A stretch of DNA of 64,000 bases from Candidatus Shapirobacteria bacterium (GTDB lineage: Bacteria; Patescibacteriota; Microgenomatia; UBA12405): assembly GCA_041666965.1 (NCBI GenBank), contig JBAYFX010000001.1, positions 2,249 to 66,248 of the forward strand, given 5' to 3'. Below are positions 30,001 to 36,000 of this stretch, in pieces. How positions within the stretch are numbered: position 1 is the first letter of the stretch; every line of letters begins with the position of its first letter. The position numbers were made by a program.

Positions 30001-33000
30001 AAGTTTATAAATCTAATCATACCTGGGACTGGCATCCTTCTCTTTCTGCGGCCGACAAAAAAACGATTTTAAAACTTCGCCTATCTTATGCTCGGGGGGG
30101 TGGAACGATTTTAGAACTTTTTGTAATTGTTGATAACTGATATGTTAACCTAACTTATGCCGAAGCCTAATTTTTTACTGACAAGATTCCCATCCGAATC
30201 TAATCCAAAGCCTATTTTAGTTCCCAGAAAAGAAGTTGATTGGGAAGGGGGTGCCGTGTTTAATCCAACAGTAATTATAGAAAATGGGAATTTTATAATG
30301 CTATATAGAGCGTTTTCAAGCGCTTTAAAAGTTGGAGAACCCAGATATTACCGACCTGGTTTCAAGTTAGTTAATAATGTCTCTTTTATAGGTATTGCAG
30401 AAAGTAGCGATGGTGAAAACTTTATTAGAAATAATAAACCTCTCATCAGCCCAAGTGAAACATATGATAACTATGGTTGTGAAGATCCAAGGGTGACAAA
30501 ATTTGAAGATTATTATTATATTACATACACAGCAATAGATGCCCCACTTTGGGAGAAAGATACAAAACCCAACATCAGAATTGCACTGGCAAGAACCAAA
30601 GATTTTGTGTCAATTGAAAAATTAGGTATTGTTGGTCCAACAGTCAAATCAAAAGCTGCTTGTATTTGGCCCGAAAGAGTTAAAGGTAAAATTGGATTCG
30701 CTTTTACGGAGAATGCAGATAGTATAAACTCATCGGTAAAAATTAAGTATTTTAATAATATTCGGGAAATATTAGTGACAACTGAATGGACGGATAGTTT
30801 AACCATGTTAAAGACAGAGAAGTGGCTTCATCGTGGCCCGGAATTGGGAGCAGTGCCATTAAAGACAGACAAGGGGTGGTTAATGGTCTTTAGCTCGGAA
30901 TCAATGACAGATTCATGGAGTGTGTCAGCAGCCCTATTCGACTTGGAAGATCCACACAAAATGATTGGAAGAACAAAAGGTTTTGTATTGGAGCCTGCTG
31001 CTGATTATGAGAGAAATGGGTTAGTACCAAACGTAGTTTTCCCGTCGGGAGCAGTGTTAGTTGGTGATGAAATCTGGGTATATTATGGAGCTGCAGATAC
31101 TGTGATTGGATTAGCAAAAGGGAGATTTGAAGATTTATTGAAAACGATAACATTGTACTGATTTGGCTTAGTTCGCTTGGTGGAACGATTTTCGAACTAT
31201 ATACTTATGGTTTTAATTCGGACTCCACCCTCCCAGGCTGGCACGTGAGGAGTCACAATCCTTTTACGATCGTAATAAGGATTGTGAGTTTTTTCAGCAA
31301 GTCCAACGTATCCAAAAATAGGATCAAGAGTGATAGATTGAGGAACTTCATTGCTGACTAAGTCGACGGCTAACCAGTAGTGTTGATCAAAAGGATTTTT
31401 GTCGCTACCTTCTATACGAGGATTAGCTAGGTGAGGGTGGTTGGTCACAAGTCTGACGAGAACATCGTATCCATATTCGGCAAAAAAAGTACAACGATCA
31501 AGAGCGTATTTAAATTCTATTTTGCTTCCGTCAAAGAGTTGTGTGGCAAGACCAACTATCATTGCCATTTCCGTCGGAGTTAAGCCGTCGGGATTAAGAC
31601 GTACAGTTCTTTCTTTACTTTCATAAAATTTCTGTGTTTCTCCAGCCATTATTGAATCTTATCATGGCGTATCACTTCCACTTAACCATGTCATAAAAGC
31701 TTATTCGGTGTATCTTTACTTGTTATATTGACACTTGCTCCCCGCCTTAGACTCAATTAGGACTTGTTTCACCTAGAATAAATTTACTTGACATTACTTA
31801 AATTAGTAATATTATGAATATATATTCATTTATATTTATTTATCTAAATAGGAGGCAATATGCCAAACAGAGATAAAACAGGCCCAATGGGTCAAGGTCC
31901 ATCAACCGGTAGAGGTTTTGGGCCTTGTGGCGGAGATAAAGGTTTAGGTTGCAACTTTGGTCGTGGATTATGTCGTTTTAAATCTTTAGCTGACTACCGA
32001 AAAGCTTTAGAAGAAGAGCTTGAGGATACCAAAGAGTTGGAAGAAGAATTAAAATAAAATATGGTTAGGCCAAAGAATCCTAGATGTTTACGATTTAACC
32101 CCGAGGTTGTTTACTTTAAACCTCGGGGCGTGCCCTTGTCTATTCTTGAAGAAGTGGAATTATTTCCCGATGAACTTGAAGCCTTAAAATTACACGATGT
32201 TGACGAATTAGAACAAATTGAAGCGGCTAAAAAAATGAAAGTATCACAACCCACCTTCGGTCGGATTTTAGATAAAGCTTATAAAAAAATTGCCATTGCC
32301 ATAATTAAGGGCAAAGCTATAAAAATTAGCAAAAATGTTCTCTAGTCCAGGACGGGGTATGTAAAGTTAGAACCTATTTTAGGTTCAAAAAAAGTTCTAG
32401 TCTCATTTGCTCGGACAGTGGAACGATTTTAGAACTTTTGTAGCAATTAATAAGATTAAGTTGTTAAACTTTTAAACCAAGGGGTTAATTTGAGTGGTAA
32501 TTCAAAGTAATATTCAGGGCGGATGTTGTTAGTAAGTTTTTCTAGTTCTGGTTGTGGAAGATTTAGAGTGCCTATTAGTTCCCTGGCTTGGTTTTTGGTA
32601 ACAACTTTCTTTTTCAGATTTTTAGCAACACTAATAATTCCTTCTCTTAGTGTATTTTTCACTTTAATATCCTCATGATTATAAAACCATCTTCTAAGAT
32701 AAATATTAAAATCACCTGTTTCCATGGGATTAGGAATGCGATGGAAGTATATGACAGCTGATTGCGTATTCGGCTGTGGGTAAAATGATGTTTTGGGAAC
32801 TTCCATTATAATTTCGGCTTTAAAATATGCCCCCAAAATTGGTTCTTTATTAACTTTATCGGCTAAACTTTTTGGGGCTAGCCAAATTAAATCGCCTTGA
32901 TACCAACGAGCGTTCGTATAGTTATGTAACATATTTTGGGATTGACTATAAGGGATACTGGAAATTGTTTTGGTGGGAGGGTGGTGAATACTTTGAAATA

Positions 33001-36000
33001 TATCGTCATTTAATAATCTATATGCATCTCCATAAACGATTTCAACATTGCCAGGTAGTTGACTTAAGAGGGGTTTAAACTTTGTATCAATTTCAATGGC
33101 AATTACTTCCTTGACACTGGTAGCTATTTTCTGAGTGAGAAAACCTAATCCCGGACCAATTTCTAAAATACGATCAACAGGAGATAGTTGGGCGCATTCA
33201 ATCATTTTGTTTAAAATATCGTCATCAATACAAAAGAATTGGTCTTTGGCAATATCAAGACTATTCTTGGATAAAAAATCTTGAACTTGCTGTAAATAAT
33301 TACTCATGGGCAAATTATACAAAAGTTCGAGTCTATTCTGTGGTGATGCGTAATATGGATAAATAATACGTACGTAAAAGTCAGTGCTCGGACAGTGGAA
33401 CGATTTTAGAACTATTTAATCAATTTTTCCATGTCTATACACCAATCCTCCACTCCACTATAAATCCCGTCAACATAAGTTTTTTCACCTGTGGGCTGAT
33501 AACCTAGATGTTGGTAAAGTTGGTTAGCATGATCATTTTCCTGTGGATTGACGGCTAGACCAATTTTAGAAAAACCTTTTTTTTTAGCTTTCCGCTCACA
33601 TTCTTTTATCAATAATGAACCATATCCTTTACCCCTTTTGTCTTCTTTTGTATATAGATCTTCCATGTCTGGATATTCCGGATGAGTCTCCTTGCCGTTC
33701 CATTTTAATAAAACAAAACTAACTAATTCAAAATTGTCTTCAAGCACTAAAAACTCCACCTCTCCTTTATTTTGCCGATTAAGACGATTAGTTACAGTTT
33801 CCAAATCTAGTGAAGGTTTAATAATTTTGAGTGATTCATAGTCAGCAGGAGTGACATTTCTGATTATCATAAGTAAATTTTACCAAAAGATCGGTAGTTC
33901 GGAAATCGGTCTAGATGCGCGGACAGTGGAACGATTTTAGAACTATTAGCACAGTTTAGAGCTTAGTCAAAAGCATAACGACCTGTTCTCTTAATTCATC
34001 ATCGTTATGTTGTGCATCATGGAGAAGACTCAAGATTTCCTCATCTTTAATTCCGTGAACAAAAAATGCGATAGCTGATTTTCTCCTCAGATGTTGATTT
34101 TCGTCTGTTTGTAATACTCTTCTTAACCCGAATTCTTTACTTTCATCAAAAGGTAATTTAGTTTTTTCTAAAAGGCTGATAGCTATATCTCTTTCATACA
34201 ACACCTCACTGATCAAACCTTCACTAGTCCAATTTATCCACGCTGGATTGTTACTTATTTCTGTAACCCGATCATCAATAGCAGTCCAATCGTTTTCTGT
34301 TGCTTTTTGTATAAACCATTGAGTATCTATTGGAGAATCTATTGTCACAGTTGATTATACAAAAGTTTGTGTCCCATCCTGGGTAATGAGTTATATGGAT
34401 AGATTTCGTGCCTAAAAAAAATGCTCCCCGCCTTGGAGGAAATTAGGAAAGCCGTGAGTTAGAAGTAAGTTTTACAAATCTTCTTCTGAGATAACTTCAA
34501 TCCCGTTTCTCTTTAGCAATTCAGAACACACACCGTCTCTATCAATTAGTTTGCCCGTAAAGGTACCATCATATGTTTGTTTGGAACCACAAGATGGGGA
34601 CCTTGCTTTGAGAATTGCCTTTTTGCATCCATAAAGATTGGCTATTCGCAAAACTTCTTCAGCACCAGTCTGATAGTTGACAGTTACGTCTGTACCATCT
34701 TTAGTAATCACCCTATCGCCGTTTCTCTCTGATGGTGTCCGGGGAGTTGATAGTCCACCCAATTGCTCTGGGCATACTGGAAGTAATTGATTATTCTTCA
34801 ACATAGCTAATACCTTTTCATTTGATTTTGAATTGCCGTCGTAGCGACACTTGCATCCGAGTAGACAGGCACTACACAAAATTGGTGGTTCTGATTTCAT
34901 AGACAGATTATACAAAAGTTCTCCAGTCCAATATGGGATATGTCAAATTTAGGTTCAAATAGCGCTTGCTCGGACAGTGGAACGATTTTAGAACTAGTTC
35001 TTATTGTATTCAATCCCATCCGTTCTAACTAGAATTAATTTTTGGTCTTCTTTGTTTAATACAGCGTAGGCGCAATCTGTAATATCAGCTATTACACTTT
35101 TATTTAGAATGTCTCCAAAGATTACCCAAAATGGCATACCGTGGGTAACAATGCCTATTGTTGAATAATTTAAGGCACCGGTAGCTTCCATAAACGCTTT
35201 ATTTATTCTATCTTCAAAATCCTCTTGAGACTCTGCCCCTTCTATCTGACTTCTGTAATCCTTAAGTTCTTCAACTAATTGTGGATATTTTATTATTGCT
35301 TCGCCTCTGGTCATCCCGGTCAGAATCCCGTTTTTATTTCTTTCCCTTAAATCTATAATTGTTTTTATCTCACCACCTAATTTCGCTTGTAGTATTTTTG
35401 CGGTTTGTTGTGCTCGTTTTAATGGGCTGCAAAAAAGAATCTGTATACCGGAATTACTTAATTTATCAGCTAGTTCGTGTGCCTGAGATACGCCTTTATC
35501 TGACAACTCATCATCATAAGCTCCTCCATATCTATCTTCAATATCTCCAGTTGTTTGTCCGTGTCTAATAAGATAAATTCTCATAAGTACTGTGTGATTT
35601 TATCAAAAGTTCGAGTCCTATCTTGGGTAATGAGTTATATGGATAGATTTCGTACTTGAAATAAGTTGCTCGGGCAGTGGAACGATTTTAGAACTTTAAA
35701 ATTCTCGATTGTCAGGTAATACCGCAAAGCAGTGTTCTTTCGTAAGGGGTAATAAATTAAACATCTTTCCTTTAGGTTCAAGAATTATTTGAATTATGGG
35801 ATTTTTGACTTTTATTCTACCTGGAAATATACTTAGCTCAACAATGCTTCCACAATCATTGACTACTGTGACTCGCTCCTCAAGAACCCTGGCATTGATC
35901 CTTTTTGTTTTGTTTCCCTTTCTTGGTTTTTATCTTGGCTATAAATTTCACGAATCTACTGCTCTCCCCCCCTCTCAAGAACGGATATTAGCATCTTCAC

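Follow-up and report, generated by a model that had tools for sequence, protein, structure and literature searches.

How are the genes of a cassette array expressed in a genome that lacks a Shine-Dalgarno (SD) signal? This question is raised by a 64,000-nt stretch of the genome of a Candidatus Shapirobacteria bacterium, a member of the candidate phyla radiation (CPR) (contig JBAYFX010000001.1, positions 2,249 to 66,248; hereafter the window). A cassette array occupies 29416-35695 on the minus strand, where ten copies of a junction element, all in a single orientation, delimit nine cassettes (29.4-35.7 kb of the window), and every copy found in the 64 kb is confined to these 6.3 kb. The results suggest that a -10 box without a -35 element, located in the core of the junction, probably makes each same-strand cassette an autonomous leaderless unit. 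A preliminary description of this DNA had proposed a leaderless promoter in every repeat; its reading is partly supported, appearing largely right while needing the corrections given below.

Junction elements and start codons in the array

Read in the sense of the minus-strand genes, the junction element consists of a 29-nt block, a variable part of 20-55 nt, and an arm ending in GAAC. The arm leads into TTTTG and a hexamer (TATAAT or TAAAAT), and the following gene has its start codon after a further 5-6 nt. Eight of the blocks belong to type A and two to type B. Comparison of the repeats places a type-A block (AGTTCTAAAATCGTTCCACnnnnCGAGCA) at 35667-35695 (minus strand), with further copies in the same orientation at 29416-29444, 30090-30118, 31170-31198, 32408-32436, 33385-33413, 33916-33944, and 34967-34995. 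The type-B block, a variant of AGTCCTGATTGAGTCCAAGGCGGGGAGCA, is located at 34422-34450 and 31736-31764 (minus strand). The two types are identical at 17 of 29 positions, and type B, which occurs at some junctions of the array, is also present in a related locus (L079, 7364-12910). The junction elements are mosaics of A-type and B-type arms. Between the block types the direct repeat GTTC-N7-GTTC changes to GTCC-N7-GTCC, and this parallel change suggests a protein that binds two like half-sites.

In minus-strand order, the cassettes carry genes for a histidine phosphatase (His_Phos), DUF523 (a 2-thiouracil desulfurase), a 130-aa protein, a GNAT acetyltransferase, an rRNA adenine methyltransferase, DUF5320 with DUF134 (reversed), a 150-aa protein, GH130 (reversed), and a 98-aa protein (reversed). 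Five consecutive cassettes share one strand and three cassettes are inverted. The named functions are Pfam assignments, while three array proteins have no Pfam match, and the cargo is a typical accessory mix.

The preliminary description had placed the start codon 5-6 nt from the box, and this spacing is found at four consecutive minus-strand cargo genes. The rRNA methyltransferase gene is preceded by GAAC-TTTTG-TATAAT-ttgccc-ATG (33305-33328, with the box at 33314-33319 and the ATG at 33305-33307), the GNAT gene by TTTTGG-TAAAAT-ttactt-ATG (33868-33888, box at 33877-33882, ATG at 33868-33870), the gene for the 130-aa protein by AAAC-TTTTG-TATAAT-caact-GTG (34346-34368, box at 34354-34359, GTG at 34346-34348), and the DUF523 gene by GAAC-TTTTG-TATAAT-ctgtct-ATG (34898-34921, box at 34907-34912, ATG at 34898-34900). 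The spacers of these four genes contain no purine run. Orthologues of the 130-aa protein elsewhere have ATG at the same codon, with TATAAT or TAAAAT five nucleotides (N5) upstream. The stated spacing does not extend to the histidine phosphatase gene, which reads GAAC-TTTTGA-TAAAAT-N12-ATG (35582-35612, minus strand, box at 35597-35602, ATG at 35582-35584); with its 12-nt gap, the transcript of this gene is predicted to have a leader of some 5 nt and would thus not be leaderless in the strict sense. The candidate junction promoter stretch is GGACTGGAGAACTTTTGTATAATCTGTCTATG.

The TTTTG-TAnAAT module is present in five of the ten junction elements, and a sixth has TAAGAT-tcaata-ATG (31647-31661, minus strand) at the start of the 150-aa gene, which follows a type-B junction element. 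In the remaining elements (E1-E4) the box is absent or decayed, and E4, which no same-strand gene follows, reads GCTAAT. The proposal that each repeat carries a promoter is thus to be narrowed to junctions with a same-strand gene after them. The inverted DUF5320/DUF134 cassette uses other signals altogether (31788-31862, plus strand): TTGACA-N16-TATTAT (31788-31815), a leader of about 40 nt, AGGAGG (31850-31855), and ATG (31860). These signals are unlike those of nearly every other gene in the window, and such a textbook promoter may point to a foreign origin.

Enrichment of the box-to-ATG geometry and its probable promoter class

The exact motif TATAAT-N5-7-ATG, whose enrichment the preliminary description had named as a check, has six matches in the window where 2.2 are expected; none of 100 shuffles reaches six. 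Four of the six matches stand at probable gene starts, one of which implies a corrected start at 59108; the other two lead into open reading frames (ORFs) of just 13 and 14 codons. One match outside the array is at the ABC-F gene (TATAAT-caatat-ATG, 46898-46912, plus strand), as had been reported. The strings quoted for the array are all present on the minus strand at their positions, whereas the box quoted for the second ATG of lexA (40803-40817, plus strand) is CATAAT-atgccc-ATG rather than TATAAT, a weaker box matching 5/6.

With a looser definition of the -10-like hexamer (A at position 2, T at position 6, and at least four of six matches), the hexamers upstream of 85 window ORFs peak at spacers of 5 and 6 nt (7 and 11 matches against about 2.4 expected per position). 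Genes that are first in their transcription unit have such a hexamer at N5-7 in 16 of 50 cases, compared with a background of 8.4% (p=1.7e-6); about a third of the organism's first-in-unit genes therefore share this spacing. The signal persists at first-in-unit genes outside the array (10/41, p=0.0016), which makes the geometry a genome-wide property and not a speciality of the cassettes. Within the window alone, first-in-unit genes differ from the others with p=0.077 (16/50 against 5/35). In related CPR contigs, for which the gene calls of an annotation pipeline were used, the geometry is found at 13 of 19 (L079) and 8 of 19 (L077) first-in-unit genes. When the window, L079, and L077 are pooled, the box precedes 41 of 93 genes with room for a promoter and 10 of 45 tightly coupled genes (Fisher p=0.015), and its rarity at the latter argues for a promoter rather than a translation signal.

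The junctions themselves show the same spacing. Fifty unique junction sites with a same-strand ORF after them were collected from the window and the related CPR loci and scored by the first-ATG rule, and 31 of them have a TAnnnT box at N5-7. The counts are 11, 17, and 5 at spacers of 5, 6, and 7 nt and 6 at a spacer of 8 nt, with 1-3 at most others. The proportion exceeds both that of all ATGs (10.2%, p=7e-19) and that of AT-rich contexts (18.3%, p=1e-11), so the box geometry is beyond chance. The hexamers vary as -10 boxes do (TATAAT, TAAAAT, TAGAAT, TATCAT, TAAGAT, and TACAAT), and because the search criterion itself requires A2 and T6, information comes only from how the remaining four positions vary.

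As had been predicted for the cassette genes, no SD signal is seen, and this holds for the window: SD-like 4-mers occur in 8 of 85 upstream regions (9.4%), against a background of 10.1%. Genes of the ribosomal-protein operon (window 1-17000) are preceded by, for example, tttaaaATG and aactaacATG, with neither SD nor a -10 box at N6. Internal operon genes that have no SD and are not leaderless imply that an SD-independent route of internal initiation exists.

The geometry resembles that of known leaderless promoters. Experiments in Mycobacterium tuberculosis provide one precedent: 73% of transcription start sites (TSSs) have a TANNNT box 7-12 bp upstream, no -35 motif was found, and 26% of genes are leaderless (PMC3898074). 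The computational counterpart is 'group C' of GeneMarkS-2, genomes whose gene starts are preceded at 6-8 nt by a Pribnow box (PMC6028130). Like the leaderless promoters of Actinobacteria and Deinococcus, the signal described here combines a -10 box 5-8 nt from the start with no -35 consensus and no SD, and is enriched at the first genes of transcription units. It differs from group C in its CPR (Microgenomates) host, in the lack of SD also at internal genes, and in the location of the box inside a mobile repeat. Among CPR bacteria, TSS maps exist for Nanosynbacter lyticus only, and in the literature we found no report of leaderless transcription in CPR or of this architecture. The promoter type is thus a known one, and what is new is the placement of this element in the shared core of a non-canonical CPR cassette junction.

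These results point to the following mechanism. RNA polymerase would initiate at the junction -10 box, and with a spacer of six nucleotides occupying positions -6 to -1 and the hexamer -12 to -7, the A of the ATG falls at +1. The transcript would be leaderless, which would suit a host without SD usage. Because the box is within the junction core, each same-strand cassette would carry or reconstitute its own promoter; the cassette unit would comprise the -10 box, a leaderless ORF, and the junction site, and would need neither a common upstream promoter nor a ribosome-binding site. More broadly, many transcription units of this SD-less Shapirobacteria genome may begin right at the start codon or only a few bases from it. 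We infer promoter function and leaderless mRNA, both well supported, from the sequence, and the junction would in addition act as a recombination site. The picture that emerges for an uncultured CPR lineage would be a concrete one: no SD, promoters consisting of a -10 box only, and leaderless mRNAs.

Cassette boundaries and alternative explanations

A search with the 18-mer core of the block gave matches in metagenome-assembled genomes (MAGs) of Shapirobacteria, Saccharibacteria, and other Patescibacteria and in about 50 metagenome contigs; similar tight clusters or arrays occur in L079, L029, L069, and L002. Alignment of the related loci shows a sharply bounded block, near-invariant over 28-29 nt, between unconserved flanks. 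The block starts at or just after a stop codon: a same-strand ORF ends no more than 60 nt away in 60 of 90 sites, and in nine sites a TAG stop is common to ORF and block. GAAC-TTTTG-TAnAAT recurs before unrelated genes in L079, L077, L009, L030, L041, L063, L007, L008, and L033, which bears out the earlier statement that the box lies within the conserved repeat. Counted by hand from the module list, a start codon that opens a long ORF stands at N5-7 in 18 of the 25 strict modules, and the linker from GAAC to the hexamer varies from 4 to 7 nt among related junctions.

Orthologous cassettes in different neighbourhoods define the ends of the unit, since their identity begins exactly at GAAC|TTTTGTATAAT. 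In L041 and L077, neither the genes nor the elements on the upstream side are related, and identity runs from GAAC|TTTTGTATAATTTCCATATG into the next block; the orthologous cassettes of L009 and L030 behave in the same way at their boundaries. The Peptidase_S51 cassettes of L069 and L079 share about 93% identity over the gene and the block that follows it, as far as GAGAACTTTTGTATAAT, past which the spacers and the next genes differ. These boundaries indicate that the mobile unit is TTTTGTATAAT-N5-7-ATG...stop followed by the block, the variable part, and GAAC. At the sequence level, TTTTGTATAAT is the core common to the junctions.

Two adjacent junctions of L079 (8590-8640 and 9340-9390) are identical through TATAAT-TCATCT-ATGAAAC, past the start codon. 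This shared stretch enters two unrelated genes, Peptidase_S51 and NUDIX, and the DUF523 junction of the window likewise reads ...TCTATGAAA. In L002, a Saccharibacteria MAG, an array of the same block (GTTCTAAAATCGTCCCACCGTCCCyGC) spans 1526-6592; canonical intrinsic terminators such as ACCCAGCCTAGCTGGGTTTTTG come after its blocks, and an AAGGAGG Shine-Dalgarno sequence precedes at least one of the downstream genes. No TTTTG-TATAAT-type core is found at the L002 junctions. The other signals of the inverted cassettes, the terminators and SD of L002, and the decayed E4 box show that block and promoter are separable functions.

Several points weigh against a promoter that makes the cassettes leaderless. 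There is no -35 element, and a two-hexamer sigma-70 scan misses the junction boxes, its total number of hits equalling the shuffle expectation. The extended -10 element (TGnTATAAT) of the preliminary description has to be withdrawn for most of the array: in the three TATAAT copies, as in CTTTTGTATAAT, TG abuts the hexamer (TTG|TATAAT) and is one base out of register, and the canonical TGn occurs only at the GNAT copy (TGGTAAAAT). In several related loci the canonical form is present, for example TGGTATAAT and TGGTAGAAT, and many junction hexamers there carry a proper TGn. In addition, one cassette gene, that of the histidine phosphatase, has the 12-nt gap; 22% of tightly coupled genes carry the motif, near the 18% of the AT-rich background; the SD-independent internal route could serve the cassettes too; and the near-invariance of TTTTGTATAAT could reflect recombination rather than transcription.

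The last point leads to the strongest alternative, in which TTTTGTATAAT is conserved only as the crossover or binding core of recombination, its likeness to a -10 box is incidental, and transcription starts elsewhere. The 11-mer is identical at many junctions of several genomes, exceeding the conservation of ordinary -10 boxes in the window, and it sits exactly where the identity of orthologous cassettes begins, at the foot of the hairpin; the lack of -35 and proper TGn elements fits as well. However, a linker of 4-7 nt and a degeneration of the TAnnnT kind are unlike a recombinase core, and the start codon keeps its N5-7 distance to the hexamer, in a geometry that is also enriched at non-cassette genes free of the repeat. 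The box has decayed in E4, which has no same-strand gene to serve, and L002 has the same block with terminators and at least one SD-led gene and no such core. We therefore consider it unlikely that recombination alone explains the conserved core.

A second alternative is that the array is polycistronic, as in an integron driven from its promoter Pc, and that the AT-rich TATAAT merely keeps the starts unstructured for SD-independent initiation. The ribosomal-protein operon genes must be translated without SD or a -10 box at N6, five consecutive cassettes share a strand, and the window's junction elements, as poor hairpins, make poor terminators, all of which this explanation would accommodate. 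AT-richness does not account for a TAnnnT signal that keeps its position, peaks sharply at a spacer of 6, and exceeds the AT-matched control (p=1e-11), nor for the depletion of the box at tightly coupled genes. Moreover, the three inverted cassettes would break a single operon, and upstream of the first cassette no promoter is evident beyond its own junction box. A polycistronic array is accordingly somewhat less probable still, and an autonomous leaderless unit remains the preferred explanation.

Finally, it is very improbable that the TTG codons in the repeat are genuine starts and that MYNL is a real N-terminal peptide shared by two proteins: TTG-TAT-AAT is indeed in frame with the ATG in both genes, but the 15 nt in front of the ATG are repeat sequence common to unrelated proteins, pipeline calls open at the ATG, Pfam domains start after it, and a like artefact, LYNFFM, is seen in L069 and L072 at an orthologous junction. 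The ORFs of the two MYNL proteins, 32456-33322 and 34472-34915 (minus strand), open at TTG within the repeat (33320-33322 for the rRNA methyltransferase and 34913-34915 for DUF523) and read TTG-TAT-AAT-N6-ATG. An independent pipeline starts both genes at the ATG, giving proteins of 283 and 142 aa, and position 1 of the 2-thiour_desulf Pfam model aligns with residue 7 of the 142-aa form. The earlier interpretation of MYNL as a translated -10 box is thereby confirmed, and in these genomes longest-ORF gene calling adds false N-termini, of which MYNL and LYNFFM are examples.

Start positions need attention at two further places. At 58575-59240 (minus strand), the longest ORF opens at TTG (221 aa), and GCTATAAT-tcgatt-ATG at 59106-59120 suggests that the real start is at 59108, which would give 177 aa. 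At 23740-23760 (minus strand), TATAAT-tactt-ATG opens an ORF of 13 codons only, and a 100-aa gene begins 7 nt further on, out of frame, at ATGAACTATGAAC; the gene may have either a 7-nt leader or a tiny upstream ORF.

Comparison with integrons and other repeats

Classical integron cassettes rely on a single promoter upstream of them, and the distal ones are for the most part silent. The array shares much with integron arrays and with clusters of attC sites lacking integron-integrases (CALIN): its cassettes hold single genes, its sites all have one orientation, and its genes are mostly co-oriented. As with attC, the site starts at the stop codon and has inverted ends (AGTTCT...AGAACT), which could pair in an imperfect hairpin. 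The crossover is apparently at the 3' end of the site, so that the next cassette opens with a conserved short sequence, and the same cassette occurs in different neighbourhoods as a unit of ORF plus site with unrelated upstream neighbours. Canonical attC sites can nevertheless be rejected, as no pair of RYYYAAC and GTTRRRY cores spaced by 40-150 nt occurs on either strand of any of the ten junctions, and the 29-nt block, unlike attC, is conserved in sequence across CPR classes. A Pfam scan of window ORFs, covering all those within about 10 kb of the array and part of the others in the 64 kb, gave no recombinase or integrase domain, and none is listed near the arrays of L077 and L079.

Type-B elements with a matched 3' arm have folding energies of -14 to -16 kcal/mol (z -3 to -4), with AGTyCT/AGAACT as the base of the hairpin and the core beginning at its foot. 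The type-B consensus fold is consistent and shows no compensatory changes, the seven elements being too similar for covariation. Shuffled sequences fold as well as the type-A elements of the window, and as RNA only the short elements (E3, the first half of E4, and E6) surpass their shuffles. Downstream of the DUF523 gene, the type-B block (34424-34441, minus strand) has a small GC hairpin followed by T8, and it is the only terminator-like site that the scan reported at the junction elements of the array. A role of the junction hairpin and its T-tract as an intrinsic terminator is speculation.

Integron cassettes are generally promoterless and Pc-dependent (10.1101/2023.11.21.568050), whereas here the junction core itself carries the promoter box. 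Promoter-bearing integron cassettes and group IIC-attC introns are closer, in that internal promoters drive downstream cassettes; their promoters, however, are occasional and cassette-specific and give leadered mRNAs, while the box described here is constant and abuts the start codon. We tentatively raise the possibility that the CPR (Microgenomates, Saccharibacteria) harbors an unrecognised integron-like system with its own site family, in which the core TTTTGTATAAT doubles as a leaderless promoter in Shapirobacteria. The integron-like site would consist of the 29-nt block AGTyCT-N7-GTyC...GAGCA and a hairpin ending in GAAC. If this is true, every captured ORF would be expressed on arrival without Pc or a ribosome-binding site, and self-expressing cassettes with a junction -10 box would differ from the integron solution to the same problem. 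The conserved 29-nt block could serve as a handle for finding such arrays and the recombinase in metagenomes. Our literature search gave no match for the motif strings and no paper on integrons in CPR.

Other repeat classes fit less well. Correia elements and other miniature inverted-repeat transposable elements (MITEs), together with repetitive extragenic palindromic (REP) sequences and bacterial interspersed mosaic elements (BIMEs), belong to the short mosaic repeats of intergenic regions; they have inverted ends, can provide a -10 box to a neighbouring gene, and are dispersed genome-wide. The junction element is likewise a short mosaic repeat with inverted ends that offers a -10 box to a neighbouring gene, but a dispersed REP or MITE repeat is ruled out by the confinement of all 64-kb copies to 6.3 kb, and a DNA uptake sequence by the same clustering in place of dispersal. 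Tandem integration at a tRNA att site is ruled out as well, with no RNA family in the array at E<=1; the only RNA-family match in the whole window is a tRNA-Pro at 60120. By inspection, the length of a CRISPR repeat is about right, but the copies are spaced 0.5-1.2 kb apart with genes between them, and a dif/Xer-type site is rejected because the block has no inverted arm symmetry and has the direct repeat GTyC-N7-GTyC instead. Annotated plasmids and phages gave no match to the array DNA, and the one match in IMG/VR lacks the rest of the block.

The flanks of the array (29019-29415 and 35696-35795) are non-coding, and no attI-like site or recombinase gene is evident. The right flank holds a fragment of the variable part, TTTAGGTTCAAGAA, as found at 32378 and 34948. 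Beside the array, 36686-46006 contains an RNase H-like/UvrD-type helicase pair, lexA, and a large Eco57I/MmeI-type restriction-modification pair, and this neighbourhood looks accessory or defence-rich.

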